A stretch of DNA of 64,000 bases from Candidatus Omnitrophota bacterium. Lineage in GTDB: Bacteria > Omnitrophota > Gorgyraeia > B26-G9. The position numbers and the translations under genes were made by a program. The notes beneath the pieces were generated by a model. It was not told the DNA's origin. It saw only the letters and a program-made list of their open reading frames with translations, and searched no databases. Shown here piece by piece: positions 1,730 to 26,584 of the stretch. Numbering within the stretch: position 1 is the stretch's first letter; every line of letters starts with the position of its first letter. The stretch spans positions 93,786-157,785 of the forward strand of contig JAZDHZ010000007.1 in assembly GCA_043805415.1 (NCBI GenBank). Direction: 5' to 3'.

Positions 1730-1760
1730 TTTCTATTTTCTTTATGTTCTTGTGTCTTGT

Positions 1761-1780
1761 GGCCACGTCACGCCGTGGCC
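1761..1780. other. GC-rich hairpin ggccacg-tcacgc-cgtggcc, 24-43 nt downstream of the stop of the 1804..2838 gene
   Basis: Perfect 7-bp GC stem in an AT-rich spacer; related motif CACGTCAC..CGTGG at 13194..13211. No U-tract follows on the minus strand, so it is not a canonical terminator. Confidence 0.4.
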
Positions 1781-1803
1781 CTACTATTCGCTATACGCTG
1801 CTT

Positions 1804-3841: not shown

Positions 3842-4084
3842 GGAACTTTGTATCCTTGCAACTAGCTTATTCCTCGGTCTAGAATCAATTATTTCTGCTC
3901 ATTCTCGCCTTACATCCTGTAAGGCTCCGAGGATAAATCTCTGATTTTGCCAGTCCTAACAAAATCAGGCTTTAAACCCGCAAAATAATTATTCTAGCCC
4001 TTTTTACTTTATCCTTTTTACTTTTTACTTCCATCTGTGTTCATCGATATTTTTTATTAGTGTTTATCACAAAAGCTTCTGCTT
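3842..4084 (-). promoter_or_regulatory. 243-bp structured spacer between two radical-SAM genes inside the operon
   Basis: Nested inverted repeats: cctcgg...[gccttaca tcc tgtaaggc]...ccgagg at ~3871..3925, and tgattttg-N10-caaaatca at ~3944..3969; no ORF of 60 aa or more. Confidence 0.35.
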
Positions 4085-12625: not shown

Positions 12626-13009
12626 TTATGACGACAGCTCTAATCCTTCGAGAAAATCATCAACAATTTTTTTATTCTGGTCATTTTTCCACCAGGAAAA
12701 GCTTATCCCTGATCTATATTTATCAGCATCCTGGTAAGTCCATTCCACTTTGCCGAAAACTCTTATTGGGCTAATAGTTTCATTTAGTAAAATATCTATA
12801 CTTAGACGTGTGCCAACAGCCATTGTTTCTTTTGAATAAATTCCTGCGCCGAAAAGAGTAAAATCCCGCAAAAAGCATTCTGTTCCGTTCCAATAGCGAA
12901 ACCATGCCTGCGGATCTAAGGGCCTAACCTGTACAGCTGATTTATCAGCTAATTTTCTTATATTCGCTCTCTGTTCCTTTGCGATAATATCCATATTTTT
13001 TTGCTCCAA
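12626..13009 (-). CDS. Small stand-alone PilZ-domain protein (putative c-di-GMP receptor)
   Basis: RANIRK (RxxxR) and DFTLFG (DxSxxG-like) motifs; paralog of the 37540..37899 protein (RPLDPQ.WFR.WN...VFGKVEW...G.SFSWWK shared). Confidence 0.6.
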   Translation of the reverse strand: MEQKNMDIIAKEQRANIRKLADKSAVQVRPLDPQAWFRYWNGTECFLRDFTLFGAGIYSKETMAVGTRLSIDILLNETISPIRVFGKVEWTYQDADKYRSGISFSWWKNDQNKKIVDDFLEGLELSS

Positions 13010-13262: not shown

Positions 13263-13937
13263 TTATTTAGGCAGGGAAATTGTAGCAGTATAGTCATTTT
13301 TGTAAAATTCAGGGTTTGTTGTTTGTGTGCCCATGCCCATTTCTATGGTAATCAATACTTCTATCTTGCTCGGCGCTCCGTCAGTTCGTGAATCCCAGTC
13401 AATGAATGGAGCTCCGGAGCTGTCAAAAAAAGTAAATTGTAAATCAGTGATATTTTCGGAAAATGGATCGCTTGATCCAGTATTAAAATTAAAATCAAAA
13501 CCAACCGGATCTAAGGTTTTTCTACCGTCAGTAACATAAAATCTTTCTAATACATCATCATTTAATTCCGCGGTTCCCTGCCCATCCAGCCAGAATCCAA
13601 CTTCACATAAATCGGATTTATCAGCTTCATTTGGATTTAAAGCAGCAATAAAATAAAGTTCATCGCCAATGCTATCTGTTCTCCATCCGCTGGGAGTGGT
13701 TTTATCAAATCCTAAACAATAAAAATTATTACCTTCTCTAATCACCGCGCTGGAAATCTCTCGAGTCATTCGATCTAAAACAACCCGCGCGATAGTCGTA
13801 GATTTTAAAATATTATCCGCCTTTTTCCAAGCACGCAAAGAAACATTAAAAACCGAATACAAAATCGCTATCAGTAAAGCAAGAATTCCGATAGAAACTA
13901 AAAGCTCAATCAGGGTAAATCCTTTTTTTAAAACCAT
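13263..13937 (-). CDS. Type IV pilin / pseudopilin-like protein (prepilin N-terminal cleavage/methylation domain)
   Basis: N-terminus KKGFTLIELLVSIGILALLIAILYSVF: class III signal with G-1, F+1, E+5 and a hydrophobic helix; start codon overlaps the stop of the upstream 767-aa gene. Confidence 0.7.
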   Translation of the reverse strand: MVLKKGFTLIELLVSIGILALLIAILYSVFNVSLRAWKKADNILKSTTIARVVLDRMTREISSAVIREGNNFYCLGFDKTTPSGWRTDSIGDELYFIAALNPNEADKSDLCEVGFWLDGQGTAELNDDVLERFYVTDGRKTLDPVGFDFNFNTGSSDPFSENITDLQFTFFDSSGAPFIDWDSRTDGAPSKIEVLITIEMGMGTQTTNPEFYKNDYTATISLPK

Positions 13938-16240
13938 TAAAATGTTCCCTCATAAACAACTCGAACAATATGCCGGGTATCTAAAACAGCGCTCTGCCAT
14001 CCCAGGCCTTTAATATAATCACCCAGATCGCTAAACTGCAAAGAAATTTTACTATTTTCATCACACTGATAAATACACTCAAAATAAAGATTATGGTGTC
14101 CAACAACATCCCCATCTCTTCCATAATCTGAGACACGGCTATAGCGGTAAACAAGGCGGGTGCTTACATCTTCATTCAGCCAGTAACGAATATCCGCTCC
14201 GGTATAATTCATAAAATCATCTAATGTCGCGGCATAATTAAATTCATTATAAGTATATTCCAAGCCTATCTCCGTCCATTTATCCGGAGTTATAACCAAG
14301 CGGGTTTTACTAATATAATAATACGGATAAGGCGCCTGCGGATTAATATCAAGCCAGGTATAAAGATAATCGGGAAATTCAGGATACTCATTAGTTTTTT
14401 CTAATATTTCCTCTAAACTCAGCCATTGATTAAAATCATATTTAAATCCCGCTGATACTGTGCTTATATCCGGGCTTTTACCTTCAGCCGTGTCCGGACG
14501 ATTGTGCGCGAGCATCAAAAACTTGTAAAGCATTTGTTCGCTTGCTTGATAAGCCACCTCGCCTCTTAAAACATTTTCCACAAATGAATCATCTGTGGCA
14601 TTGCTGACATTGCGGAAATTAAGATAAACATCAGTGCCTTCAAATTTACCAAAATGAACATCGGCTGCTGAGACTTTTCTGTCTTTATCAATACTATTGC
14701 CAATCCGATAGTTTTCTTCATCATCGCCGCGGCGAAAAAATGCTATATGTCTGCCCCATTGCTGATCGTTTTTAGTGTAGTTATACGCTGCCAAGGGAGC
14801 TTCAAATTCCCGGCCCATTTGAGAGTATGAAAAACTGGAATCAATCGGCATTTCAAAAGGATCGATTTTACTTTTAAGCGCGACCGTATACGCGTCATCG
14901 TCGCTCTTTACTTCATAAGCTTCATTATTAGTATTATGTTCGGTTTTCGAAATCGCGGCTTCGGCTTTTATGGCGTGATACTCATTAATTTGATAAGAAG
15001 AATCAATGGCCATGGCCTGATCAAACGCGTCCTGACTATCATTATTAAACCCTACTCTTGAACTATAAATTGATCCCAGCATGAATTGATCAGAAAATTC
15101 TTTTTTAAACCTAAAGGCTAAAGGAATATTATTTACTTCAGTATAATCATCCCAAAGATCTAAAGGCGCTGCCATCATAAAATCCGTATAAATGCTGGCA
15201 ATTTCCCCTTCAAACCGAAAAGCTCTGAGCAAAGTAAGCCAGTTGCCGGCGCTGTCTCTTAAAACTTCGTCAGCCTGCCAGGCTCCGCTTGTCCAGCCTT
15301 CGGCTGTATATAACCTGCCGGGTATCCATTTATACAGCCACGGACTTGCCTGCCAAAAAATATGATTATTGACTAATTTCAGCGGATCATCGGAATACAT
15401 TGATATATTTTCTTCGGCATATAAAAATAAAATCATCCGGTATTCATCTTCTTTATAATCAAACCATAAAGCTTTTATTGGTTTTAACTCCATATCAACT
15501 TTTAATTCCGGAATGTCTATTCTATGCGTATCTGATCCATATGATCCAAAAACAGTTGTGGGCGGGGCAAAGCCGTTGGAGACTTTTGCTTCCGGCAAAT
15601 TAAATGTATCTCCGGCCGCGGAACGCACTGTTTGCGGATATAGATTACCCGTATTAGACCAGTATTTTAACTGAAACTCTACTGGATCCGCGCCATCAAC
15701 CGCTCCATACCAGCTAGGCAAAGTGATTTTTTGTGACTTACCGACAAAAGCCCAGGGGTCGATGGATATTTTTGTATACAGGGAAAGCTTATCATTTATC
15801 GGAGCATCAATGCTTAACTGCAATTGATTGTAGATGGAAGGGTCATAAGTATTATAACGGTTCTCGCCATAAACCCAACGCCAGGAACGCTCCCGCTGAA
15901 GATAATTAGCGTCTTTCCAAATTAAGTCCGAAGTATCGGATCCTAAATTAAACCGGAAACTCCCTTTTACTACCGGCTCATAAAGCAGTTCATCTTTCGC
16001 GTAGTCTTCCTGAGCCAGCGCGTAAACATCAGGATCATATAGGTCGGAATACTCCTGATCAATAACTTCACTGCTTTGATCTTGAGCAAAAGTAAATGGG
16101 CAAAAAAAGATATAGTTTAATCCTAAAAATAAAATTATGAATTTAAACAGATAAGCTGATAAGCCGCTACCGCTAAAAAAAAATCTCTTTAGCTTCTTTA
16201 ACTTCTCAAGTAAAACATTTTGATTTCGCATATTTATCAA
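13937..16240 (-). CDS. Large secreted, aromatic-rich protein, possibly an outer-membrane beta-barrel (767 aa)
   Basis: N-terminal signal peptide ending ...PFTFAQ|DQ; Y/W/F-rich, alternating-polarity sequence; C-terminal ...VYEGTF ends with Phe as many OMPs do. Confidence 0.4.
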   Translation of the reverse strand: MINMRNQNVLLEKLKKLKRFFFSGSGLSAYLFKFIILFLGLNYIFFCPFTFAQDQSSEVIDQEYSDLYDPDVYALAQEDYAKDELLYEPVVKGSFRFNLGSDTSDLIWKDANYLQRERSWRWVYGENRYNTYDPSIYNQLQLSIDAPINDKLSLYTKISIDPWAFVGKSQKITLPSWYGAVDGADPVEFQLKYWSNTGNLYPQTVRSAAGDTFNLPEAKVSNGFAPPTTVFGSYGSDTHRIDIPELKVDMELKPIKALWFDYKEDEYRMILFLYAEENISMYSDDPLKLVNNHIFWQASPWLYKWIPGRLYTAEGWTSGAWQADEVLRDSAGNWLTLLRAFRFEGEIASIYTDFMMAAPLDLWDDYTEVNNIPLAFRFKKEFSDQFMLGSIYSSRVGFNNDSQDAFDQAMAIDSSYQINEYHAIKAEAAISKTEHNTNNEAYEVKSDDDAYTVALKSKIDPFEMPIDSSFSYSQMGREFEAPLAAYNYTKNDQQWGRHIAFFRRGDDEENYRIGNSIDKDRKVSAADVHFGKFEGTDVYLNFRNVSNATDDSFVENVLRGEVAYQASEQMLYKFLMLAHNRPDTAEGKSPDISTVSAGFKYDFNQWLSLEEILEKTNEYPEFPDYLYTWLDINPQAPYPYYYISKTRLVITPDKWTEIGLEYTYNEFNYAATLDDFMNYTGADIRYWLNEDVSTRLVYRYSRVSDYGRDGDVVGHHNLYFECIYQCDENSKISLQFSDLGDYIKGLGWQSAVLDTRHIVRVVYEGTF

Positions 16241-16278: not shown

Positions 16279-18231
16279 CTAAAATATATTATACTCCTCT
16301 TTGGCAAAAATTGCAAAATTAGTGCCCGCGGCTGAGATTGAGCCGCTATCCGGCGTATACCAGCCATGTCCGGTATCAACAGCGCTATTACTGGCATAAG
16401 GCAAGCCTCCGCTGCCTTTGCTTAAACCAAAGGCTGAACGCACAAGCATCAGTTTTTCCAGCTCGCCCAGATAATAATCCGCTCTGCGCTCATATTTATC
16501 CGCCTTAGCCGGATCTGATTGCTGTTTATAAAAACTGCTGATCTGGCGAAAAGCGACAACCATTTGCGCTGTCCATTCTACTGAAATTGTTCCGCTTCTG
16601 CTGATGCTTGAAGGCGCGCAAAAATCAAAACCGCTTATGTTTATTTTTTTGCCTGAAATATTTTTAACATTTATAGTGGTCTTGCAATTTTCCTCCGCGC
16701 AGTCGATCAGATCATCAATTGTAACTCCCATATCTTCCAGTCCTTCCGGGCCAAAAGCCATAATGCTCAGGGCAATCGTATCAGTCGCGATCATCCGATC
16801 ATCAGTACCGCGATTAAATCTTTTTAATGTTTTATTATAAGCGGTATCTTTAAGCCAGCCATGTATTTTCCGCGCGGCCAGAGCATAGCGCTGATCATGC
16901 TCGGTTTTAAATAGGGTTTTAAAAAATATATACGCGGCAATATTCTGCTCTGTACCGGCCCAACTAACCTGAGGCCCTCCCGGCAAAGATCCATCACTAT
17001 TTTTGTTTTGCAAATCAAGCAGCCAATCAGCTATTTCATAAACCAGTTTGCTATAGGTATTTTTACCAGTAGCTTGTTCATAACGCATAATTGCCAGGCC
17101 TAAATAGATAACTGGTCCGGTGTGCACAATATATTCTGAAACATTGCCGGTAATTACATCATAGGCATTAGCAAACCCGCCTTGAACTTTTTTAGCGCGG
17201 TTATTAAAAAAATCAAAAATAAGTTCCGCCTTTTCAAACTGTTTAAAATTAATAAAATTAAACGCGCTCAGAGCCTGGTCATAAGTAAATCCGACATCGA
17301 TTAAAGCATGATCATTATCATAACTTACAATAAGCCCGGTCTTACTGCTTTGCGAAGCAATAAGCCATTGCCGCATTAAATCCAGAGTCTTATCTTCTAA
17401 AACAACTCTTTTATCACTGATTTTCTCAAGCTTGGTCTCCAAAACAGCCTGGGTATCAGTGTATTTATTAAGCTTAGTCTGCATCTTTTGTTTTTCCGCG
17501 AATAAGTCAGCGAGCTGTTTTTTTAGCTTGCTTTGATCTACCAGCAATTTTTCAACTTCTTCAGTATTCTGCTCGCCGGCTTGCTGATTTTTAAGCGTCT
17601 CGATCTTTGCTAATTTTTCCTTCATCTGATTTTCCGCTTTTGAACTATTATTCAGCATATTGGCTAAAATAAACTTTTCCGCTTTAATTTTATCCAGTTC
17701 TTGGTTTACCATAAACTGTTCATCATTTAACTGTCCCAGATGCTGAACAAGTAAACTATTATCGCGGGTAAGCCGGATATTGTCATAAGCTAAAAACCCG
17801 CAAAATAAGACTAATAGCAAACCAGCCAAAGCAATCATCCGCGGAATAGCCAGCATAATCTTAGCAAAACGGATTATGCGTTTTTGTTCAACTTGATCAA
17901 TCGCTTCATACGCTAATCCGAGCATATAACTTTGGGGATAGGGAGCGGCGGTTTTTTTTGACCAGGCAACACGCGCGATGGCTTTAATTGGGTTTTGGGT
18001 TAAGGGAATATTTAAAAATACTTGAAGTTTGTTTTTGTTGTTTTTCAGTAATTCAGTATGCTCCTGGCTTAAACTGTTTATTTCCACGCATACACCTGAA
18101 AAACTTACGTCCCGGGTAAACCCCTGCATTAAATCGCTGATCGGCTTATTTTGAGCATCAACTATTTTTAATTCAACCGGAAATATCTTATTGAGCCGAA
18201 CGTATTTTCTTTGATCATTTATCATAGGCAA
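16279..18231 (-). CDS. PilZ-domain / transmembrane / coiled-coil / (alpha/alpha)-toroid-like fusion protein (650 aa)
   Basis: N-terminal RKYVRL...DVSFSG PilZ motifs; TM helix IMLAIPRMIALAGLLLVLFCGFLAY; long Q/K/E-rich coiled coil; C-terminal ~330 aa with repeated hydrophobic-helix/Gly-Trp blocks (GWLKDTAY, HGWYTPDSG). Confidence 0.5.
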   Translation of the reverse strand: MPMINDQRKYVRLNKIFPVELKIVDAQNKPISDLMQGFTRDVSFSGVCVEINSLSQEHTELLKNNKNKLQVFLNIPLTQNPIKAIARVAWSKKTAAPYPQSYMLGLAYEAIDQVEQKRIIRFAKIMLAIPRMIALAGLLLVLFCGFLAYDNIRLTRDNSLLVQHLGQLNDEQFMVNQELDKIKAEKFILANMLNNSSKAENQMKEKLAKIETLKNQQAGEQNTEEVEKLLVDQSKLKKQLADLFAEKQKMQTKLNKYTDTQAVLETKLEKISDKRVVLEDKTLDLMRQWLIASQSSKTGLIVSYDNDHALIDVGFTYDQALSAFNFINFKQFEKAELIFDFFNNRAKKVQGGFANAYDVITGNVSEYIVHTGPVIYLGLAIMRYEQATGKNTYSKLVYEIADWLLDLQNKNSDGSLPGGPQVSWAGTEQNIAAYIFFKTLFKTEHDQRYALAARKIHGWLKDTAYNKTLKRFNRGTDDRMIATDTIALSIMAFGPEGLEDMGVTIDDLIDCAEENCKTTINVKNISGKKINISGFDFCAPSSISRSGTISVEWTAQMVVAFRQISSFYKQQSDPAKADKYERRADYYLGELEKLMLVRSAFGLSKGSGGLPYASNSAVDTGHGWYTPDSGSISAAGTNFAIFAKEEYNIF

Positions 18232-18285: not shown

Positions 18286-20109
18286 TTATTCGATCGCGAA
18301 CGAAAACTTTTTGCTTATTTTTTTATCTTTAATCGTAATTAAAAGCTCCGCTTGATAATCGCCGGCCTGCTCAAATACATGGCTAAAACTTCTTTCCTGA
18401 GAAAGCACCAGCTCTTGGCCGTTGATATTCCAGCTCCACCGCATATCTTTTTCCTGAATGCTTGCTGGAAAAATATTAACGCTAAACTCAACTGGCTGAC
18501 CTAGTTTAGCTTTCTTGCCAGCAGGCATATTGATAACTATATCATGCATCCAAACACTTCGGCAAACAGCATTCTCACTGCCCTCTGTTTTAGCGCTAAG
18601 ACATAAAAGCTTCGGCAGCGCTGCAGCATATGTGGTGCTGAATTCAGTAACATTGCCCGGTAAATTATTTGAACCTTTATCCCAAAACCACTCAAAATTA
18701 AATGTTGGCTGAACTGTGCCCACGGAAAAATCCTGGGCCGTTGCCTGCCAATTTACAGTTTCTTCCAAAAACCCGTTCTGAGGTATGCTTTTTAAAGTCA
18801 TTACGATATTAGAACCTTGCGCGCTAAACATCATATCCAGCGGATAAGCCACTTCATTTTTTATCGGAATTTCATTATCAATCTCTTGTTTACGCTCAGC
18901 TGCCTGGAGGGAAAAAGCCTTGGCTTTATTAATCAGGCGCGTGAATAATTCACCTGCCTTTTGCTTATCACCCTTCCATTGCGTAACTAAACCAGCCTGA
19001 TAAGCGCAGAAATCAGCATAGTCAGAATCAGCAAATTCATTATTTACTTTTTCCAGATAATCTAATCCTTGGTCTATCTGTCCAAGATAAAAAAGATTCA
19101 AAATCCCCAAACGGGTATAGACTTCAGCTAAAAACTGACTTTGCGCGGAACTTTTAATAAACTGCTTATATTCTTCTTGGGCGCGTTTATAATCGCTGAG
19201 TGTTTCCAGATTAAGCCCTCTATCAAAAATTTCCGCTTCCGTAAAAACTTCTTGGCCAAAACTTTTTTCGGCTTTAGCGTATATTTGCTCAGCAAAGTCG
19301 GCGTCTAAGGCCGGGCAAAATCCATAATCGCGAAATTTATCACAGATATTCATCAAAACGATCTTGGCATCAAGTTTAGAATATCTTAGCAAAACAAAAT
19401 CAATATAATGACCATAAACAACAATTGCCATATCAATTTGCCCGGCACTTAGATATCCATCCGCGATTTCCTGTAAACGCCGCGCGGAAGAAGCATCAGC
19501 ATTATTGGCGATTAAATAATCTTTATACGCAACAAATAATTGATTAAGCTGGTGCTTTCTTCCTTCGGAAGCAATAATTTTAGCAACTTCCTGGAATTTT
19601 TTAATATCCCCGGTTTTTTCGGTATACGCGATAACATTATTGACAAAATTATCAAATACTTCCTGCGATGCTTGCTCATTCTCATCACGCAAGTATGCTT
19701 TTTGCGCCAAATACTGCAAATCAATCAACTCTCCAGTTATTGCCGCGCTGGCATATTTAGCTGCTGTCTGAATTATTTGTTCATCCAACTCATCCATATT
19801 GTCATAATAATCCTGCCAAAGCTCTTTTTTTTCCAGGTTATCAAGATACAAGGAATCAGCCAAAGCTAAATAGTATTCAATTAAAAAAATATCATCTGAT
19901 TCTATGGCTTGGGTTTCAAGCTGATTAAAATATTCCCTCAGCCCGCTAAAATCTTCTTTGGAAACAAAATCAACAAAACGAGCTTTTATTTGATCAGCAG
20001 AAAAACCATCTTCGGCTAAACCCAGAGTTCCGCTTAGCATAAAACTTATTAGCATAAACATTACCCACACTAAATCCAATTTTTTGCGATTAAAAACGAA
20101 ACTATTCAT
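18286..20109 (-). CDS. Secreted TPR-like helical-repeat protein with a C-terminal PKD/Ig-like domain
   Basis: Signal peptide; helical repeats rich in Y/A/L; C-terminal SFSHVFEQAGDYQAELLITIKDK resembles the PKD consensus. Confidence 0.45.
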   Translation of the reverse strand: MNSFVFNRKKLDLVWVMFMLISFMLSGTLGLAEDGFSADQIKARFVDFVSKEDFSGLREYFNQLETQAIESDDIFLIEYYLALADSLYLDNLEKKELWQDYYDNMDELDEQIIQTAAKYASAAITGELIDLQYLAQKAYLRDENEQASQEVFDNFVNNVIAYTEKTGDIKKFQEVAKIIASEGRKHQLNQLFVAYKDYLIANNADASSARRLQEIADGYLSAGQIDMAIVVYGHYIDFVLLRYSKLDAKIVLMNICDKFRDYGFCPALDADFAEQIYAKAEKSFGQEVFTEAEIFDRGLNLETLSDYKRAQEEYKQFIKSSAQSQFLAEVYTRLGILNLFYLGQIDQGLDYLEKVNNEFADSDYADFCAYQAGLVTQWKGDKQKAGELFTRLINKAKAFSLQAAERKQEIDNEIPIKNEVAYPLDMMFSAQGSNIVMTLKSIPQNGFLEETVNWQATAQDFSVGTVQPTFNFEWFWDKGSNNLPGNVTEFSTTYAAALPKLLCLSAKTEGSENAVCRSVWMHDIVINMPAGKKAKLGQPVEFSVNIFPASIQEKDMRWSWNINGQELVLSQERSFSHVFEQAGDYQAELLITIKDKKISKKFSFAIE

Positions 20110-20149: not shown

Positions 20150-21439
20150 TTATTTTTTGCCTGTTTCTTTGTCCTGTTCAGGTTCTTTATCCTGATATTC
20201 TTTATTCCAAAGCTTACGCAAAACATAATAAGCTTTCCTTGGGTTTCTTTTATTTAAACCATTGGCATCAAGCTCAGGATCTAAGCCCACAATCCCGAAC
20301 CATTCTTCATTCATATTCTTGTCCGCTTTAGCGTCAAAATCATATGAACCCATGCCCCAAGCAGCGACATTATCATGAACCCACCAGCTGTTTCGATCGC
20401 TTTCCGAGCTTTTCCACCATTCATCATTCCATTCAAATACAACTCCGCCCAGACAATTACCCACTCCCTCGCCGCCATCCATGTTGTTTTGAATGTCAAG
20501 CCATTGACTTTTCAAAAATTTTGCCTGGTTTTTCTGATCTTCTTGTTTTTTCACCATATTATAGGCGTCACAGCCAAACTCGGTTAAAATAACCGGCCGG
20601 TCAAACTTACGTTTTACTTCTTTAAAAAAGTTGCCAAATACCTTACCGCGATAGACAATACATCCAAGCAAATCAATATCCGGACAATTTTCCGCTGCTA
20701 TTTTCAGACCAACAGTCTCACCATTGCCTAAAGAGACCAGATGGATAGGATCAATTTCCTTTATTTTTTTAGCCAGTTCATTAACAAAGGAATAATATAT
20801 TTTAGCCCGCGCGTCTCTTTTTTTGCCAAAACTATCCATTGCGTCGATTTCATCGCTTGACCAGGGATTTATTCTGCCGTCAAAACTATAATTATTTTCA
20901 TTGCCTAAATTCCAGATTAGTATTCCAGGGGTATCTTTAAAATATTCTACTGTATTTAAGACTTTCTCCGTGATTTCTTTTCTAAACTCCGGATCAGCAT
21001 AATTAGCAGGAGGATAATCCCAAAAACCAAGCGTATAGCCTAAAATAGTCCGAATCCCGTATATCTTATATAAGTCCTCAATCATTGTCCGACAAAATTC
21101 CAGCTCATCTCCGCTATGATAGAGTCTGATCGTATTCACACCCATTTCTTTCATTAATTTTCCATCAACTAACCAGGGTCGCTTCGGGTCGCAGACAAAA
21201 TTATATAAAATTCCCTGCTGACCTATGGGCACTGGGGAATAACAAACCCCTTTTACAATAAACGGTTTTTTATCAACAATCAGCTGATAGTTATATTTTT
21301 GTTCATCTTCTCTGCTTTGTTTTTTAATTTTTATTTTCTTAATATAAACCTTACCCTTAGGCTCTTGTTTTAACAGACTGCATCCTGTGATTAATAAAAA
21401 AATTAATAATAACGTAATTTTACGAATTTCCATATTCAT
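20150..21439 (-). CDS. Lipoprotein glycoside hydrolase, clan GH-A TIM-barrel (GH5/GH72-like catalytic motifs)
   Basis: Lipobox LLITGC; WNLGNENNY (acid/base NE motif) and ILTEFGCDAYN (nucleophile TE/SE-x-GC motif as in GH72); paralog of the 23063..24955 C-terminal domain. Confidence 0.55.
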   Translation of the reverse strand: MNMEIRKITLLLIFLLITGCSLLKQEPKGKVYIKKIKIKKQSREDEQKYNYQLIVDKKPFIVKGVCYSPVPIGQQGILYNFVCDPKRPWLVDGKLMKEMGVNTIRLYHSGDELEFCRTMIEDLYKIYGIRTILGYTLGFWDYPPANYADPEFRKEITEKVLNTVEYFKDTPGILIWNLGNENNYSFDGRINPWSSDEIDAMDSFGKKRDARAKIYYSFVNELAKKIKEIDPIHLVSLGNGETVGLKIAAENCPDIDLLGCIVYRGKVFGNFFKEVKRKFDRPVILTEFGCDAYNMVKKQEDQKNQAKFLKSQWLDIQNNMDGGEGVGNCLGGVVFEWNDEWWKSSESDRNSWWVHDNVAAWGMGSYDFDAKADKNMNEEWFGIVGLDPELDANGLNKRNPRKAYYVLRKLWNKEYQDKEPEQDKETGKK

Positions 21440-21607: not shown

Positions 21608-22297
21608 TTATTTTTCGTAGCGGATATCATCCAGGTAGAAAACAGCTCCATCTGGATTAGAATCAGCATTAGATGCCCAGCAGAAACCGCCATTTATATA
21701 GGACAAATCAACATCTGTCAAATCAATAGTATATTGCAGCCAGTCAGCAGTAAGGTCAATCGGCCCAATTCCTACAGAATCAGAATCGCCATAAGTTCCT
21801 CCGATACCGCCCATTTTAAATTCCATGATGCGTTCATTACCAACTTTACCTTTTGCCCAGAATGTAATTTTTTTTGCTCCGCGCAGATCAAATCCGCCTT
21901 TTTTCTCACCCCAGTTGTTTGCCGGGTTCTGCCAAAATACTCCGGCCCAATTTGCCCCTTGTTTGCCTTTCGCGGTATAAATAAACTCTATACAGGTCTT
22001 TCCCTCATGAGGAGCTACAGCACAATTAAGATCCATTTTTACATCCCCGGAATCTCCCATCCAACCCGAAGGTATATAATGATTTACTCTATCGCCTCTA
22101 TCTTTATATACATAGAAATTTCCGTCCTGAAAATCCCCGGCTTTACCCAACAGTACTTCATCCGCTGCTTCATCTTCCAAATCCTGCGCGGCAACTATCG
22201 GAGCACAAAGCATCAAGCTCACACATAAAATTGCCATAAACCAAACTAACTTTTTCATCCCTTCCTCCTTTAAATGAGCGCTTGACTTACGGAGCAT
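21608..22297 (-). CDS. Secreted carbohydrate-binding-module-like beta-sandwich protein
   Basis: Signal peptide; GANWAGVFWQNPANNWGEKKGGFDLRGAKKITFWAKG...FYLDDIRYE; paralog of 22396..23022. Confidence 0.45.
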   Translation of the reverse strand: MLRKSSAHLKEEGMKKLVWFMAILCVSLMLCAPIVAAQDLEDEAADEVLLGKAGDFQDGNFYVYKDRGDRVNHYIPSGWMGDSGDVKMDLNCAVAPHEGKTCIEFIYTAKGKQGANWAGVFWQNPANNWGEKKGGFDLRGAKKITFWAKGKVGNERIMEFKMGGIGGTYGDSDSVGIGPIDLTADWLQYTIDLTDVDLSYINGGFCWASNADSNPDGAVFYLDDIRYEK

Positions 22298-22395
22298 TTT
22301 TGCGGCGTCAAGTCAACCAGCTCGAATTTAGTCCGAAATGTCTGCGGCCTAGCAGGCACTTTCGGAATCATTATTAATTCTAAGCCATTAAACTA

Positions 22396-23022
22396 TTATT
22401 CATATTTTATATTATCCAGGTAAAAAACACAACCTTTTCGATTATGCGCCTTAGTCAGAGCAAAACTAAACCCAGCAAAAATATACTTCATATTTCTTTG
22501 CGAAACATCCACGGAATACTGTTTCCAATCGGGAGTTAATACCACTGGCCCAATCCCATGATTATCAGAGTCAGGATAATTCCCTTTTAAACCGCCTAAT
22601 CTAAAAACAGCTATATGTTCACCTCCTTTTTCTCCTCTGGCCCAAAAAGTAAGCTTTTTTGCAAAGCGCAGGTCATAGCCACCCTTTTTCTGCCCCCAGT
22701 TACCCGGAGGATTAACCCAGTAAAGGCCAGCCCATCCAAAGTCTCCGGTTGCGTCATATTTTATCTTAACACAGGTATTGCCGGATTGAGGATTTTCCTT
22801 ACACCCCTCATCAACCACAATCGCCTGTCCATCACCAATAGTCTGGGAAGGGAAAAAACTGTTTTCCTTTGCCTCTTTATCTGAATAAACTATTTGCTCA
22901 GTAATCGCCGATACTTGCGCTTCTGGGGCTGGTTCTTTGTCTAAGTCTTGCTGCGCAACGGCATAACTATTTATAGCAGCTATCAAACTGACCAATAATA
23001 TCAGCAAGAAAATCTTTTTCAT
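22396..23022 (-). CDS. Secreted carbohydrate-binding-module-like beta-sandwich protein (paralog)
   Basis: DFGWAGLYWVNPPGNWGQKKGGYDLRFAKKLTFWARG...FYLDNIKYE; collinear with the 21608..22297 protein. Confidence 0.45.
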   Translation of the reverse strand: MKKIFLLILLVSLIAAINSYAVAQQDLDKEPAPEAQVSAITEQIVYSDKEAKENSFFPSQTIGDGQAIVVDEGCKENPQSGNTCVKIKYDATGDFGWAGLYWVNPPGNWGQKKGGYDLRFAKKLTFWARGEKGGEHIAVFRLGGLKGNYPDSDNHGIGPVVLTPDWKQYSVDVSQRNMKYIFAGFSFALTKAHNRKGCVFYLDNIKYE

Positions 23023-23062: not shown

Positions 23063-24955
23063 TTATCCCTCAACCCAAATCTTTTGCAATTCAAAGTAAG
23101 CTTTTTTAAGCTGCCGCATAAACGGAGAATCTGTTCCATCGCCTTGGCTGGTAATCCCAAACCATTCTTCATAATACCATCCGTCGACAAACGGTCCGCC
23201 GCAATTAGGGGTAACATCCTGAATTATATCCGGAAATCCCGGAGGAGCTCCGGTCTTCCACCACTCATCAATAAATTCAAACACAACCCCTCCCAAAGCA
23301 TTGCCAGCACCAAAACCCGCGCTGTTTTGCGCAATATCCTGCCAATTGTTAACCAGATAATCAGCCTGAAAGTTTTCAGCATATTCCCGGCTGTATCTAT
23401 GCCCATAAGATGGACATCCATATTCTGTGACCATTGCCGGTTTATCAGCAACTTCCTTAATTGGCAGCCATAAATTAAAATAGCCAAAACCATGCTTGCC
23501 TCTATAGGCATTTACTCCTAGAATATCAATGTCCGGACAATTTCCCGCGAAAATATCGAGAAAATGGATATCGCCATTGCATAAAGCTACCGGATGATAG
23601 GGATCAACTTCTTTAATCTTTTTTGCTACTTCATTTACAAAATGATAATAAGCTTCTGGGTTTTTAGGTGAATTATTGGCTATCCCATAATTATTTTCAT
23701 TGCCCAAAACCCACATCAGCACACACGGTTCATCCTTATAGTTATTAACCATCTTCATTACTGAATCAAGCATATTACTCTGATGTTCTGGATTAGAATA
23801 GTCAGTTCCCGGAACCCAAGAAGCCTTTGAACCAACCGCGTACATGCCCAGGAAATCACCAATAATAATCCGAATACCATAGTCCTTATATAAATCTACA
23901 AACAGCTGCTTGTTTTTTACAAAATCATGGTGGTAAACTCTTAACACATTTACTCCCATATCTTTCATAATCTGAAAATCACCAATAGCCGGCTCATCAC
24001 CTTCCTGGATATTGTTCCTGTTCTTATCAATCCAAGCGTCATAAGGACCATCAATCTTATTATTTTGGTTCTCATCAGATAAAGACCAATCTTTTAATGT
24101 GCCGATATCCGGACTCTGTCCGATCTTAGTTGGCTGATAAGCCATGGCTTTGATTATAAACGGCTGACCGTCTACTTTCATCTGCCAATGACCATTTTCA
24201 TATTTTGTCAAAGTAACATGCCCATAGACTTTTTGTTGTTTGACTTTCAGGCTGGACATATTTATTTTTTTATCCACTACCTGATTGGGCTCAACCTTAA
24301 TTAATTTTCCAGGATTAATACTAAACACATCGTTTCTTAGATCTTCATCGTATCTATTTTCAATCGCGATCCTGGCATCAACCAGCTTAATTCCCAGTTC
24401 AGGATATTTTTTAGTTAAATACATGATTCGATCTAAAGCTGCCGGTCCGACATACCAGGGAGTTCCCCAGTAAGTAACACCCATGCTCTTGGGAAAATGT
24501 ACTGCCGCGGCATAATAAGCTTTTATTGCCTGGCTAATATGCCCGGCATTTTCCAATATTTCCGCGGTATAAAACAGTTTTATTCCCTGATCCTCAGCAG
24601 CGGTTGCCCATTTATAAAATGCCGCCTGATAATCAAAAATATTTACAAATGACCAGTGGCTGCCCAGGAGTTTTTTCGCTTTATTAAACTCCTTGTATTG
24701 AGGATCCTTGGTTACATTGGTATTTGGGAATATGCCTTCGCCAACCGCGGCAGATAATCCTTTGGGATCTTTTAATTGGTATTTATATTTGGCTGTATTT
24801 AGATTCTTAAACTCTCCGTACTTTTCATAATCGATAATAATTTCCGGACCCTGATTCTCCAATTTAAAAGTCGGCTCAGGCAGCGCGAAAACATCGCTCA
24901 AATTATAAATAAAACTAAGAATTAAAAATGTAAAAACCAGTTTTTTAAACCGCAA
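23063..24955 (-). CDS. Secreted glycoside hydrolase, clan GH-A TIM-barrel with an N-terminal accessory domain (630 aa)
   Basis: Signal peptide; WVLGNENNYG, MVTEYGCPSYG and GVVFEFIDEWWKT blocks parallel the 20150..21439 protein. Confidence 0.55.
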   Translation of the reverse strand: MRFKKLVFTFLILSFIYNLSDVFALPEPTFKLENQGPEIIIDYEKYGEFKNLNTAKYKYQLKDPKGLSAAVGEGIFPNTNVTKDPQYKEFNKAKKLLGSHWSFVNIFDYQAAFYKWATAAEDQGIKLFYTAEILENAGHISQAIKAYYAAAVHFPKSMGVTYWGTPWYVGPAALDRIMYLTKKYPELGIKLVDARIAIENRYDEDLRNDVFSINPGKLIKVEPNQVVDKKINMSSLKVKQQKVYGHVTLTKYENGHWQMKVDGQPFIIKAMAYQPTKIGQSPDIGTLKDWSLSDENQNNKIDGPYDAWIDKNRNNIQEGDEPAIGDFQIMKDMGVNVLRVYHHDFVKNKQLFVDLYKDYGIRIIIGDFLGMYAVGSKASWVPGTDYSNPEHQSNMLDSVMKMVNNYKDEPCVLMWVLGNENNYGIANNSPKNPEAYYHFVNEVAKKIKEVDPYHPVALCNGDIHFLDIFAGNCPDIDILGVNAYRGKHGFGYFNLWLPIKEVADKPAMVTEYGCPSYGHRYSREYAENFQADYLVNNWQDIAQNSAGFGAGNALGGVVFEFIDEWWKTGAPPGFPDIIQDVTPNCGGPFVDGWYYEEWFGITSQGDGTDSPFMRQLKKAYFELQKIWVEG

Positions 24956-25007: not shown

Positions 25008-26447
25008 TTAACAGCCGCGGCGTTCTTCCAGTATCCTGCGCACTTCCAGTGCTTTTTCTTCTGTTCCTTTAAAAGTAAAAATTGTTATCACCGCGATCAG
25101 TGAGGTTATCATCGGAACACTGATATCAAATACTCTTAAAAGCAATAATGTTTTAACTGTCTGCTGTCCGCCCAAATCAACCCTAAAGCCAGTCGCATTA
25201 AGCAGATGTCCTGACATGGCAAAAGCCAAAGCCATGCCCAGCTTTACCATCCACCAGTATATTGATCCAAACATGCCTTCTCTGCGTTCGCCGGTTTCCA
25301 ATTCATCAACATCGCAAACATCAGCCATCATCGCTCCCATTAAGGTGAAAAGCCCGCCAAGACCAAAAGCAATAAACGGCGCGGGGATAAGCAGCATTTT
25401 CGGATGCCCCGGCTGATAGCAAAACCATTTCATCGCGTATCCAATAATCGATACAGATGTTGAGAAAATAAAAGCCTTTCTTTTTCCTATTTTTGTGGAA
25501 ACCCAAGTAATAAAAGGAATTACACAAAAAGTAGAAATCGATGAAACCGTGCCGAATAAGCCCATATATGTAGCTCCGGCATCACTATTACCGCCAAAAA
25601 CATAATAAATAATTACATATGAAGAAAACGCGGAAACCAGCATAAAACCATTAAAAACCAGGAATGTTGAAGTGCAAAGCTTAAGAAATGGCTTGGATTT
25701 AAGCGTAATCAGAAACCCTTTAAAAAACTTTACAATATTTTTACCCAGACCAGCAATAACTACTGTTTGTTTATGCTTGGCGTCTTTTATATTGCCAAAT
25801 CTTTCTTTACAGAAAATCGCCGGCATTATCCCGGCAACCATAACAAATACTCCGACCATGATCGCTAATCCGCGCGCGCCTTCCACAGGATTAGCAAACC
25901 ATTTATCATTTTCCATGATTTTCCAAAACCAGGGAGCAATAACCCAGGCAAATTGACCAATCCAGTTGCTAAAACCCATAACCCGAGTACGCTCATGATA
26001 ATCCGGCGTCATTTCATATCCCAGGGCTACCCAAGGCGTAGCAAAAACAGTATAGGCAAGATAAAAAATTATCGATACAATCAGAAAATACCAAAAATAA
26101 AAATTTTCGCTTCGCCCGGAATGCAGCTGCCACATCATCGCAAAGATAATTCCTGAGGATATCGCGCCCCAAAAGATATATGGTTTGCGCCTGCCGAAAC
26201 GCGATCTGGTATTATCAGAAATATATCCCATGATCGGATCAGTTAAGGCATCAGTAAGCCGCGGCAATGCCATGAGCGTCCCAACCACTGCCGGATTTAT
26301 TCCCAGTCCGAGATTCAGCACAATCGCCATACAGCCAACAGCAGCTCCCAAAAGATTATTAACTAATCCCCCAATGCCGTACACTAATTTCTGCCCAATA
26401 CTTACACGATCTTGGGGAGCGGTCTTCCAATCCTTGATCTCACTCAT
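25008..26447 (-). CDS. MFS glycoside-pentoside-hexuronide (GPH/MelB-type) sugar:cation symporter
   Basis: GPH signature DNTRSRFGRRKPYIFWG; ~12 TM helices. I took the start as the internal ATG at 26447 (MSEIKDW) because AGGAGC lies 5 nt upstream; the ORF-track start at 26525 has no RBS. Confidence 0.7.
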   Translation of the reverse strand: MSEIKDWKTAPQDRVSIGQKLVYGIGGLVNNLLGAAVGCMAIVLNLGLGINPAVVGTLMALPRLTDALTDPIMGYISDNTRSRFGRRKPYIFWGAISSGIIFAMMWQLHSGRSENFYFWYFLIVSIIFYLAYTVFATPWVALGYEMTPDYHERTRVMGFSNWIGQFAWVIAPWFWKIMENDKWFANPVEGARGLAIMVGVFVMVAGIMPAIFCKERFGNIKDAKHKQTVVIAGLGKNIVKFFKGFLITLKSKPFLKLCTSTFLVFNGFMLVSAFSSYVIIYYVFGGNSDAGATYMGLFGTVSSISTFCVIPFITWVSTKIGKRKAFIFSTSVSIIGYAMKWFCYQPGHPKMLLIPAPFIAFGLGGLFTLMGAMMADVCDVDELETGERREGMFGSIYWWMVKLGMALAFAMSGHLLNATGFRVDLGGQQTVKTLLLLRVFDISVPMITSLIAVITIFTFKGTEEKALEVRRILEERRGC

Positions 26448-26552
26448 TTGAGCTCCTTCCCTATTTTTGTAATTAGCGGCGATCTTCGTCCTTGCTTTAA
26501 TAAACTTTACGAATATTTTCAGCAATTTTTTTGGATCAAGCCCTGCTTAAGT

Positions 26553-26584
26553 AAATAAAAAAGCCCATATAAGTTTATATGGGC
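26553..26584 (-). terminator. Rho-independent terminator (minus strand)
   Basis: Perfect 9-bp stem gcccatata/tatatgggc with a 4-nt loop; on the minus strand it is followed by TTTTTTATTT. Confidence 0.5.

Follow-up and report, generated by a model that had tools for sequence, protein, structure and literature searches.

To our knowledge, there are few known routes by which c-di-GMP acts across the inner membrane: LapD, which works via a degenerate EAL domain, and Alg44, BcsA and PgaCD, which act on synthases. LapD has two transmembrane (TM) helices, the periplasmic domain LapD_MoxY_N, a HAMP domain and a degenerate GGDEF-EAL receptor. In the pairs BcsA(PilZ)/BcsZ and Alg44/AlgL, a PilZ receptor and a periplasmic (alpha/alpha)n glycan-cleaving enzyme serve one pathway as separate proteins encoded in biosynthetic operons. 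In Alg44, the alginate co-polymerase of Pseudomonas aeruginosa, a canonical PilZ domain at the cytoplasmic N terminus is followed by one TM helix and an HlyD/MFP-like periplasmic part with coiled-coil character; Alg44 works with the GT2 synthase Alg8. A process that extends into the periplasm depends on c-di-GMP binding to Alg44 in the cytoplasm (PMC4436075; 10.1101/814665). According to a review of PilZ domains, Alg44 dimerisation is mediated by the PilZ C-terminal helix, and PilZ domains within fusion proteins keep c-di-GMP binding (10.1101/814665).

We analysed a stretch of 64,000 nucleotides from a Candidatus Omnitrophota bacterium, hereafter the window. Here, a PilZ receptor and an (alpha/alpha)6 domain, the toroid, are joined in one polypeptide, and the operon is apparently catabolic. 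Our preferred reading, to which we give about an even chance, is that the gene encodes a c-di-GMP-responsive, membrane-anchored periplasmic glycan-processing protein, in which PilZ is coupled to a six-hairpin domain. If true, the link from a PilZ domain via a single TM helix to a six-hairpin domain in the periplasm would be a new class of output, the control of extracytoplasmic glycan cleavage or binding.

Domain architecture of the PilZ-toroid protein

The ORF list contains one ORF at exactly 16279..18231 (-), which encodes 650 aa from a TTG at 18231. A 648-aa NCBI protein (P0001), annotated as 'PilZ domain-containing protein [Candidatus Omnitrophota bacterium]', is 100% identical to the product from ATG 18225, which is probably the true start. 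The AF2 model of the protein (pLDDT 91.5, pTM 0.81) and the other evidence given in brackets divide it as follows.

16279..18225 (-): PilZ-TM-hairpin-toroid gene (ORF list, translation, identical P0001, upstream sequence)
17896..18216 (-): cytoplasmic PilZ domain, aa ~4-110 (Pfam PF07238, motifs, AF2 beta-barrel)
17782..17850 (-): single predicted TM helix, aa ~126-148 (Kyte-Doolittle, homologue segments, positive-inside bias, AF2)
17356..17781 (-): predicted periplasmic antiparallel coiled-coil hairpin, arms aa ~149-217 and ~221-290, ~100 A long (AF2, heptad periodicity, length variation)
16282..17355 (-): predicted periplasmic (alpha/alpha)6 toroid (AF2, Foldseek against the PDB, conservation; weak GH76/GH88/GH127 matches only)

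The domain order PilZ-TM-hairpin-toroid was kept in several hundred proteins, thus the ORF is not a chance ORF.

The PilZ domain matched Pfam PF07238 with E 1.3e-7 (32.4 bits against a cut-off of 22.5), and both c-di-GMP-binding motifs were intact: R6-K-Y-V-R10 (RxxxR) and D39-V-S-F-S-G44 (DxSxxG). In the AF2 model, the strands of the beta-barrel occupied residues 9-109 and were followed by a helix from 111, the six-stranded barrel with C-terminal alpha-helix of a PilZ domain. We infer that this domain binds c-di-GMP. Among 96 homologues, RxxxR was present in 77 and strict D/NxSxxG in 68, and glycine replaced the motif serine in ~30% (NxGxxG variant). The homologue models lacking RxxxR begin with M-x-TVFPVE (compare P0119), and we explain the missing motif by start sites placed at an internal Met. 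A homology search with the PilZ and TM part alone returned a single match.

One hydrophobic segment was found in the protein (aa ~126-148, Kyte-Doolittle maximum 2.4), and a single such segment was present in 94 of the 96 full-length homologues. The N-terminal flank of the TM helix carried more K and R than the C-terminal flank (4.5 vs 2.7), and was the richer one in 84 of 96 homologues. Signal peptides were present in the stand-alone toroid relatives, which are secreted and anchor-free. Because of this charge bias and the signal peptides of the relatives, the toroid is placed in the periplasm, and the favoured topology has the N terminus in the cytoplasm.

In the AF2 model, an unbroken helix (111-217) comprised the PilZ C-terminal helix, the TM helix and the first arm of an antiparallel hairpin, whose second arm was the helix 221-290 (pLDDT ~87-94). 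Both halves of the hairpin showed a 3.5-residue hydrophobic periodicity (p ~0.01-0.02 vs shuffles). Indels and length variation in the family were confined to aa ~205-230, the predicted hairpin tip, and the lengths of the two arms were correlated across the family (r = 0.68). An identity of the hairpin with MFP/HlyD was rejected, as there was no HlyD match in Pfam and no lipoyl or beta-barrel MFP domain in the AF2 model.

A preliminary description of the locus had proposed a single gene at 16279-18231, a PilZ domain, one TM helix, a ~200-aa coiled coil and a periplasmic C-terminal domain. The gene, the PilZ domain and the TM helix agree with the ORF list and the identical NCBI protein, with PF07238 above the cut-off together with both motifs, and with the hydrophobicity profile of the protein and its homologues, respectively; the periplasmic location is favoured by the positive-inside bias and the signal peptides. 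The coiled coil is real, but its length is ~140 aa (149-290).

LapD, to which the layout was likened in the same description, is not the closest known system. Like LapD/LapG, the protein would receive c-di-GMP at the inner membrane and carry its output domain in the periplasm, but the receptor is a PilZ domain, there is one TM helix and the output is a six-hairpin toroid. Membership in the LapD family was rejected, since LapD_MoxY_N, HAMP and GGDEF-EAL were absent in the Pfam scan and the AF2 model. The layout resembles Alg44 more closely: the cytoplasmic N-terminal PilZ domain, the one TM helix and the coiled-coil character of the periplasmic part are shared, whereas the periplasmic end is an (alpha/alpha)6 toroid instead of an HlyD domain, and the operon contains no GT2 synthase.

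In the preferred reading, the protein would be bitopic in the inner membrane, with a cytoplasmic N terminus and a periplasmic C terminus. C-di-GMP would bind the cytoplasmic PilZ domain, the C-terminal helix of which would continue unbroken into the TM helix and then into the ~100 A antiparallel hairpin. The hairpin would return the chain to the membrane surface, where the (alpha/alpha)6 domain would sit. Binding of c-di-GMP may alter the oligomeric state or the helix packing of the PilZ-TM-hairpin unit, and this change may in turn alter the activity, the partners or the placement of the periplasmic domain. Inside-out signalling, or coupling across the membrane, may be what the protein does. 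A bolder version, which we consider unlikely, takes the PilZ-TM-hairpin unit as a true transmembrane relay, in which cytoplasmic c-di-GMP, raised for example on contact with prey or host, activates an enzyme in the periplasm that belongs to a new glycoside-hydrolase-like family, its catalytic module being the same as in the giant secreted proteins of Omnitrophota. If true, it would be without precedent both as a PilZ-based inside-out switch and as direct control of a periplasmic glycanase by a second messenger.

The opposite possibility is that the PilZ domain has lost its signalling role or serves only to localise the protein, and that the TM helix and the hairpin merely tether a constitutive periplasmic enzyme. 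The deviating motif serine in some homologues and the absence of RxxxR from some gene models would fit such an anchor, as would the fact that no signal-relay module such as HAMP was recognised in the TM helix and hairpin. Against it, the PilZ N terminus was retained in essentially all ~640-aa family members across Omnitrophota, P16, Q34, T37 and G44 of the PilZ part were invariant, R6 and R10 were conserved in at least 80%, and the cases without RxxxR look like miscalled starts. Furthermore, a PilZ domain would be superfluous in a simple anchor, since secreted anchor-free toroids exist. We regard a plain anchor as very unlikely.

The six-hairpin domain and its relatives

The C-terminal domain was helical, as the preliminary description had stated, and measured ~355 aa (~291-648) instead of the ~330 aa given there; AF2 pLDDT was mostly >90. 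The top 50 Foldseek matches in the PDB (E 1e-7 to 2e-5, target TM 0.50-0.69; the highest-ranked at E ~1e-7 and target TM 0.6-0.69) were without exception (alpha/alpha)6 carbohydrate enzymes, including GH15 KfIG, AGE-family epimerases and isomerases, GH76, MmpH, GH88 and GH100. The model contains 11 helices, and the end of the coiled coil was counted as the twelfth. The (alpha/alpha)-like fold that had been suspected from the sequence was thus recovered in the predicted structure. GH8, GH48 and terpenoid cyclases, the folds named at that time for comparison, were absent from the Foldseek top 50 and from the sequence searches, apart from weak prenyltransferase-toroid matches in 4 of 17 homologues.

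Y315, D316, G370-P371, E426, D482, E550 and H620 were invariant in the toroid, D316, E426, D482 and E550 being the conserved carboxylates. The invariant polar residues mapped to the N-terminal ends of every second helix, and in six-hairpin enzymes this side of the toroid forms the catalytic face. All architectures, including the secreted stand-alone forms, retained the six-fold set of invariant residues, acidic and aromatic.

The toroid reached the threshold of no curated GH family, and is no member of GH8, GH48, GH76 or another curated family. GH76 was the sole curated family that recurred in the sequence searches, and is the nearest relative, though a weak one. The Pfam GH76 family was matched by 5 of 40 distant relatives (best E 3.8e-7), and PDB profile searches gave E ~1e-3. 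A profile from the full-length alignment found nothing in the PDB beyond coiled-coil noise, and the PDB profile searches were based on toroid-only profiles instead. PF03663 did not match the window protein even at E <= 10, and matched 7 of 17 close homologues at E of at least 7e-4. The chains of two GH76A mutants, 6shm and 6y8f, differ at one adjacent pair (Ala-Ala vs Asn-Asn), which we take to be the mutated catalytic Asp-Asp of GH76. This pair aligned with the family-invariant G370-P371, in a weak alignment (E 0.06). Membership in GH76 was rejected because the window protein was below the Pfam threshold and the catalytic Asp-Asp pair was missing. The (alpha/alpha)6 fold is shared with the GH76 alpha-1,6-mannanases, but the likeness is limited to the generic helix-hairpin repeat, with G370-P371 in place of the catalytic pair. 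The likeness to the AGE superfamily was structural only (PF07221 in 2 of 17 homologues, E of at least 0.06), and the toroid was not assigned to it.

Judging from the model, the toroid belongs to an uncharacterised family of the six-hairpin glycosidase clan with an (alpha/alpha)6 fold. Its enzymatic activity and substrate class are proposed here tentatively: since the catalytic-pair stretch of GH76 aligns to an invariant Gly-Pro, catalysis is a guess from the conserved carboxylates. In the preferred reading, the toroid would be a glycan-binding and probably glycan-cleaving module, with D316, E426, D482 and E550 as the candidate residues.

Other toroid relatives have dockerin or CBM11 as fusion partners. 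When an HMM built from the toroid alignment was run against the six-frame translation of the window, it also matched a giant ORF (E 9.4e-36):

54876..56183 (-): toroid paralogue inside the giant ORF, giant-protein aa ~2606-3041 (toroid HMM)

This copy keeps the motifs FTYD, STE.N, ATD and S.E.TA, and the giant ORF also carries Peptidase_M23 and LysM. Other giant Omnitrophota proteins were matched by the HMM as well. Giant proteins are thought to underlie predation or parasitism by Omnitrophota. In a published study of these proteins, 'cellobiose 2-epimerase-like' and 'GH76-like' domains were reported from structure only, with 5ZHB and 4C1S as the structural matches, and pilZ was mentioned only as small genes. 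As 5ZHB and 4C1S are also among the toroid matches here, those domains and the toroid appear to be the same domain family. In the giant proteins, which are secreted and comprise thousands of residues, the toroid is one module among others, whereas the PilZ-anchored membrane protein of 648 aa has it as the only domain outside the cytoplasm. Because the toroid recurs in the giant proteins, the 648-aa protein is a tractable entry point to the function of this CAZyme-like family of several hundred members. Both halves of the protein can be expressed and tested in vitro although Omnitrophota are uncultured.

Genomic context and alternative functions

In the clade of the window, the PilZ-toroid gene lies in a fully syntenic operon, which encodes a sugar importer, two GH158-like (beta-1,3-glucanase-like) enzymes, an exported TPR/PKD protein, the PilZ-toroid protein, an outer-membrane beta-barrel and a pseudopilin. 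Its other genes in the window are as follows, in the direction of transcription.

25008..26525 (-): MFS_2 (glycoside-type) sugar transporter (Pfam MFS_2, E 3e-61)
23063..24955 (-): GH158-like clan GH-A TIM-barrel enzyme, 630 aa (Pfam; best PDB match GH158 9oro, E 4.8e-13, also 6pal)
21608..23022 (-): two paralogous small secreted proteins, 229 and 208 aa (signal peptides in translations)
20150..21439 (-): GH158-like clan GH-A TIM-barrel lipoprotein, 429 aa (Pfam Glyco_hydro_2_C and GH72; best PDB match GH158 9oro, E 3.3e-9)
18286..20109 (-): exported TPR and PKD protein, 607 aa, upstream of the PilZ-toroid gene (Pfam PKD and TPR; NCBIfam CpoB/YbgF-like TPR)
13937..16240 (-): large outer-membrane beta-barrel, 767 aa, downstream (signal peptide, C-terminal Phe, AF2, Foldseek)
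13263..13937 (-): pseudopilin-like gene (prepilin N-methylation motif; Pfam N_methyl and NCBIfam GspJ-like)

The MFS_2 gene is probably the first of the operon, and a terminator-like hairpin lies just upstream of it (26563-26584). The promoter and terminator scan scored barely above shuffles, and was used only for this terminator and for a promoter-like site before a GT4 gene. The two small secreted paralogues are part of the conserved module, as both queries matched the same ORFs in related loci. The operon would serve the breakdown and uptake of a beta-glucan-type polymer, and the toroid may act within it together with the GH158-like enzymes, the importer and the barrel. A glycan-processing output, raised as a possibility in the preliminary description, fits these neighbours. 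Across the family, GH158-like, GH116 and GH94 genes, sugar importers and the outer-membrane barrel were linked to the gene in 20 of 84 distinct loci, in three gene orders. More than half of the loci had unrelated housekeeping neighbours, therefore the link to glycan catabolism holds for some lineages only.

The TPR/PKD gene is 54 nt from the PilZ-toroid gene and was directly upstream in 9 syntenic loci. In other lineages, the upstream protein was a TPR-DUF3857-transglutaminase-core lipoprotein. Taken together, an exported TPR-containing protein was encoded directly upstream in 31 of the 67 loci with a callable upstream ORF (9 TPR/PKD and 22 transglutaminase-core), often with a 4-nt overlap. 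This arrangement is in favour of a LapD-like capture of a partner, in which the toroid and the hairpin would form a non-enzymatic docking surface that binds or releases the exported TPR protein according to cytoplasmic c-di-GMP. An exported transglutaminase-fold protein encoded beside the gene in many lineages is a further feature shared with LapD/LapG; LapG, the partner of LapD, is a transglutaminase-like cysteine protease, which we also count for this reading. LapD is a precedent for inside-out control by c-di-GMP (PMC3032553). However, the TPR/PKD and transglutaminase-core proteins had no detectable homology with each other, Transglut_core (PF01841) differs from the LapG family, and the six-fold acidic and aromatic set of the toroid, typical of a sugar-binding catalytic face, is kept in every architecture. 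We regard partner capture as unlikely.

The downstream genes bring in another alternative, in which the protein would combine an Alg44-like c-di-GMP co-factor with a periplasmic glycanase of the AlgL/BcsZ type, and would export or trim the cell's own exopolysaccharide or envelope glycan across the envelope together with the barrel and the pseudopilin. (Alpha/alpha)n periplasmic glycanases or lyases such as BcsZ and AlgL accompany c-di-GMP-controlled synthases, and the PilZ-TM-helical periplasmic layout matches Alg44. The barrel and pseudopilin genes lie directly downstream, a GT4, Glf-like and Wzm/Wzt cluster follows further downstream, and the PilZ-toroid gene, found at 452 loci in GTDB species genomes across Omnitrophota, seems single-copy and phylum-wide, with no isolate occurring twice among the 80 best loci. 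All of these would suit such a role. On the other hand, the operon has no processive GT2 synthase, the best promoter-like site lies between the operon and the GT4/ABC cluster, Pfam and AF2 detected no HlyD/MFP domain, and the conserved partners are catabolic: importers (MFS_2 or SBP-dependent ABC), GH158-like, GH116 and GH94. We think a role in glycan secretion quite improbable, and keep to the preferred reading of a glycan-processing protein.

The barrel gene is separated from the PilZ-toroid gene by a 38-nt gap. It was directly downstream (<=300 nt) in 10 loci and within 3 kb in 15, and the pseudopilin gene, which overlaps the end of the barrel gene, was kept downstream in 10. AF2 gave an all-beta model of the 767-aa barrel (pLDDT 72), for which Foldseek returned LptD, TonB-dependent receptors and FimD with low TM scores, and Porin_4 was detected in one homologue. 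Its counterpart in locus L001 was 29% identical (E 6e-100). The 940-aa downstream protein of locus L002 was considered as a counterpart and rejected, as it is unrelated to the 767-aa barrel. In a few loci, an HD-GYP gene was directly upstream of the PilZ-toroid gene, with three matches in all, which we count in favour of the preferred reading; the distinct ones are L029 and L030, L006 being the same locus as L030.

The PilZ domain and its anchoring in the membrane

The PilZ-toroid gene is a single ORF at window positions 16279-18231 on the minus strand, with 650 codons from a TTG. An ATG two codons downstream, at 18225, gives a 648-aa product identical to the NCBI entry 'PilZ domain-containing protein [Candidatus Omnitrophota bacterium]' (P0001, from a 182-kb MAG contig), and residues were numbered by this form. 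Inspection of the upstream sequence revealed no obvious Shine-Dalgarno sequence ahead of either codon. All ORFs of at least 150 aa in the window that were taken as genes lie on the minus strand, and the GC skew is negative throughout.

The N-terminal domain is a regular member of the PilZ family. It scored 32.4 bits with Pfam PF07238 (cut-off 22.5, E 1.3e-7) and carries both c-di-GMP-binding motifs, R6-K-Y-V-R10 and D39-V-S-F-S-G44. RxxxR was present in 77 of the 96 full-length homologues, and the strict (D/N)xSxxG in 68. The homologues without RxxxR begin with M-x-TVFPVE, which, compared with P0119, suggests that an internal Met was annotated as the start; the remaining motif deviants read N-x-G-K-G-G. 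According to a review, PilZ domains inside fusion proteins retain c-di-GMP binding, and the PilZ of Alg44 dimerises through its C-terminal helix (10.1101/814665). We consider it likely that the PilZ domain of this protein binds c-di-GMP in the cytoplasm. A protein in which a dead PilZ domain serves as a plain anchor is very improbable given the conservation of these motifs.

One hydrophobic segment follows at aa ~126-148, and a single segment was likewise found in 94 of the 96 homologues. The 15 residues before it contain on average 4.5 Lys and Arg, against 2.7 after it, and the N-terminal flank was the richer one in 84/96, which is the positive-inside pattern of an N-in, C-out protein. The signal peptides of stand-alone relatives and the presence of the domain within secreted giant proteins, both described below, independently support an extracytoplasmic toroid. 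This evidence argues for the periplasmic placement of the C-terminal domain put forward in the preliminary description.

An AF2 model computed from the 96-sequence alignment (mean pLDDT 91.5, pTM 0.81) showed an unbroken helix that starts where the PilZ barrel ends, passes through the membrane and extends as far as residue 217; after a short turn it is followed by a return helix at 221-290. The PilZ domain, single TM helix and helical linker described earlier were recovered, but the linker, previously put at ~200 aa, spans aa 149-290, ~140 residues. Three independent observations are in keeping with a hairpin more than with an extended rod: a 3.5-residue hydrophobic periodicity was significant in both arms (p 0.011 and 0.02), the length variation of the family fell entirely at positions ~205-230 (gap fraction 0.56-0.60 vs at most 0.07 elsewhere), and arm lengths were correlated across the family (r = 0.68). 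At ~67 residues each, the arms would be roughly 100 A long, and with this geometry the modelled toroid would return to the vicinity of the inner membrane's outer face. We hold the domain architecture and topology of the protein with high confidence.

The toroid and its relatives

The C-terminal domain (aa ~291-648) consists of alternating helices, with AF2 pLDDT mostly above 90. The best 50 Foldseek matches in the PDB were all (alpha/alpha)6 carbohydrate-active proteins (E 1e-7 to 2e-5, target TM-score 0.50-0.69, identity ~8-13%), including the GH15 isomaltose glucohydrolase KfIG (5Z3A), AGE-family epimerases/isomerases, the GH76 protein BT2949, MmpH, GH126, GH88 and GH100. The suspected relation to alpha/alpha toroids was borne out by this result.

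The toroid is outside every curated family, and its region gave zero Pfam matches in the window protein. Among 17 diverse close homologues, weak Pfam matches recurred to GH76 (seven members, best E 7e-4), GH88, GH127 and the prenyltransferase toroid, and GH76 was the sole recurring family in 40 distant relatives (five members, best E 3.8e-7). Searching PDB sequences with toroid profiles gave marginal matches to GH76 and AprG only, over a generic 'GPN-W-G-A...Y...TGD..YL.LA' hairpin repeat. Membership in GH76 was rejected on score and also on catalytic residues: between 6shm and 6y8f, two chains of GH76A mutants, a single adjacent pair differs (Ala-Ala vs Asn-Asn), which we take to be the mutated catalytic Asp-Asp of GH76, and opposite this pair, in a weak alignment, the toroids have a family-invariant G370-P371. 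The AGE family was rejected as well, the likeness being that of the six-hairpin fold class.

Whether the relatives are PilZ-fused, stand-alone or multidomain, Y315, G370, E426, D482 and E550 never vary, and D316, W374 and Y610 are nearly invariant; R472, D476, D534, R543, Q554 and H620 are invariant inside the PilZ-fused group. In the AF2 model every second helix (H314, H369, H425, H481, H549 and H632) carries the conserved residues at its N-terminal end. The active site of six-hairpin enzymes is formed by the face with the N-terminal ends of alternate helices. Conservation on this face points to a sugar-binding, probably catalytic, pocket, though it falls short of proof of catalysis. On balance we favor a catalytic, glycan-active toroid, and we concluded that the domain represents an uncharacterised CAZyme-like family.

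The toroid by itself, run with phmmer against 1.84 billion representatives, matched 655 proteins at E <= 1e-3, 295 of them at E <= 1e-10. The PilZ-type layout was found in ~60 clusters (600-700 aa, domain at ~270-650). Stand-alone forms have 370-450 aa with the domain from residue ~30-40, and the N termini inspected were signal peptides or lipoprotein-like. Giant forms have 2,000-7,900 aa with one or more toroid copies, and both of those looked up were from Omnitrophota. Dockerin or CBM11 was found on single relatives. Several copies per protein occur in some giants (P0215, P0216, P0262, P0240, P0192 and P0201), with four matched stretches in P0215 (5,959 aa), indicating that the module was reused repeatedly in giant-type proteins. 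The window itself contains such a gene:

38025-63998, minus strand: giant ORF of at least 8,657 aa, reaching the window end, of the Omnitrophota giant-protein type (10.1101/2023.11.21.568195)

This ORF is probably truncated because it extends to the window end. Its toroid copy (aa ~2606-3041, E 9.4e-36) keeps the FTYD, STE.N, ATD and S.E.TA motifs, and it also has a Helicase_C match (aa 176-234), Peptidase_M23 (aa 1227-1340), LysM and a weak GT2-like stretch. For giant proteins of Omnitrophota, structure-only domains like cellobiose 2-epimerase (5ZHB) and GH76 (4C1S) were reported in the preprint on their genes, which also noted that the giant genes are followed downstream by small pilZ genes, solute-binding proteins and glycosyl hydrolases; the PilZ-toroid fusion is absent from it (10.1101/2023.11.21.568195). 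A stand-alone PilZ protein of 127 aa (12626-13009, minus strand, TTG start, Pfam E 6e-5), encoded three genes downstream of the PilZ-toroid gene and kept at the same position in loci L007 and L008, fits those small pilZ genes.

Gene neighbourhoods and a model for the protein

Scanning one genome per GTDB species identified 452 loci encoding a relative. The best 80 were nearly all labelled Omnitrophota, a few being under placeholder names (Planctomycetia, PVC group, Ratteibacteria, Margulisiibacteriota), and no isolate appeared twice among them. When the ORFs of 84 distinct loci were compared with the window genes, a glycan module lay beside the relative in 20. The window's own clade (at least 51% identity, L007-L016) had the gene order of the window: MFS_2 transporter, 630-aa GH, two small secreted paralogues, 429-aa GH lipoprotein, TPR/PKD protein, PilZ-toroid, 767-aa protein, pseudopilin, and sometimes the small PilZ. 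Two more distant clades kept the glycan association in different orders: in one, the PilZ gene and the 767-aa homologue flank an SBP-dependent ABC importer and a GH116 (L001, L004, L067, L072), and in the other GH116 is upstream and GH94 downstream (L023, L043, L054). In loci with neither this module nor one of the two upstream neighbours described below (transglutaminase-core and HD-GYP), the relative was found amid unrelated housekeeping genes (for example RNase T, HypD, a nuclease and endonuclease III).

Both GHs are clan GH-A TIM barrels, and among solved structures they come closest to enzymes of GH158 (9oro, E 4.8e-13 and 3.3e-9; also 6pal), a beta(1,3)-glucanase family (PMC7157763, PMC13195107). 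The 767-aa neighbour has a signal peptide, a C-terminal Phe and an all-beta model (pLDDT 72), whose best fold matches, at low TM-scores, were LptD, TonB-dependent receptors and the FimD usher; it is a predicted large outer-membrane barrel. The following gene starts at the last base of the barrel gene:

13263-13937, minus strand: pseudopilin-like gene with an N_methyl motif, GspJ-like, with a weak 'Verru_Chthon cassette protein C' match

The pseudopilin was conserved downstream in 10 loci, and no further T2SS or T4P genes were found near it. Barrel, pseudopilin and protein layout would agree with a secretion role of the Alg44-plus-AlgL/BcsZ type, but a synthase is missing and the importer, GH116 and GH94 partners conflict with export, which makes this role improbable. 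A terminator-like hairpin ahead of the MFS gene and the best promoter-like site, which follows the small PilZ and precedes the GT4 gene, weakly suggest an operon from 26525 to ~12626, distinct from the GT4, Glf-like and Wzm/Wzt cluster.

A gene for a TPR-DUF3857-transglutaminase-core lipoprotein was found directly upstream in 22 loci, often with a 4-nt overlap, and ~1.5 kb off in two more. The protein (~800 aa, Cys motif GDCKD; L002 7583-9997, L005 7560-10004 and ~20 further loci, another large set of Omnitrophota genomes) may be a protease partner similar in kind to LapG. The tight coupling of exported TPR proteins to the PilZ-toroid gene, above all of this lipoprotein, which recalls LapG by fold class, raises a LapD-like docking model, in which the periplasmic part binds an exported TPR partner rather than acting as an enzyme. 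The two upstream protein types (TPR/PKD and transglutaminase-core) are, however, unrelated, and the conserved pocket is common to secreted stand-alone forms, so that we regard docking as unlikely. A PAS-GAF-HD-GYP gene was directly upstream in a few loci (three matches, of which L006 and L030 are one locus).

The core of our model is established: the order PilZ, TM, hairpin, toroid with the fold of each part, the strong family conservation of both protein ends, the repeated linkage to beta-glucan-type catabolic genes, and the paralogy of the toroid with giant-protein modules. In the model, the PilZ domain would bind c-di-GMP on the cytoplasmic side and the periplasmic toroid would act on a glycan, which in the window's lineage might belong to the pathway served by the GH158-like enzymes, importer and barrel. 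Binding may alter PilZ dimerisation or the packing of the continuous PilZ-TM-arm helix, and thereby the activity, partners or position of the periplasmic domain. No recognised signal-relay module was found in the protein, and transmembrane coupling is therefore the weakest step, which we propose only tentatively, together with a role in signalling. The whole explanation, a c-di-GMP-responsive membrane-anchored periplasmic glycan-active protein, stands at about an even chance.

The LapD-like layout suggested in the preliminary description holds as a resemblance in concept; the protein is not a LapD member, and its layout is closest to that of Alg44, of which it is not a member either. PilZ fusions in the architecture review include HlyD-type (Alg44), cellulose synthase, REC, GGDEF, EAL, HD-GYP, MCP and CheC (10.1101/814665). 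A limited literature search found no published case of a PilZ domain joined through the membrane to a six-hairpin one. The protein extends the known theme of PilZ receptors joined to output domains to a CAZyme-like output, in an architecture that has good support and a wide distribution and lends itself to in vitro tests, the organism being uncultured.

Other genes of the window

In a 1,351-aa protein (5129-9184, minus strand) a Wzt-like ABC ATPase forms the N-terminal part (aa 44-175), and no Pfam match was found in the ~1,100 residues after it; the gene of this protein adjoins those of an ABC-2 (Wzm-like) permease, a Glf/amine-oxidase-like flavoprotein and a GT4 WecA-like transferase. Four consecutive radical SAM genes (722-5125, minus strand), two with SPASM domains, come next downstream of these ABC transporter genes. 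The region from the giant gene to the sugar operon includes the gene of a 1,422-aa protein (26830-31098, minus strand), which has a signal-anchor-like N terminus and no Pfam match, and, adjoining it, that of a 1,191-aa HEAT-repeat/DUF218 protein (31140-34715, minus strand). Just downstream of the giant gene lies an AbiEii-type nucleotidyltransferase toxin gene (35160-36059, minus strand, Pfam E 3e-28), of which a 159-aa ORF without a Pfam match (36377-36856) could be the partner.
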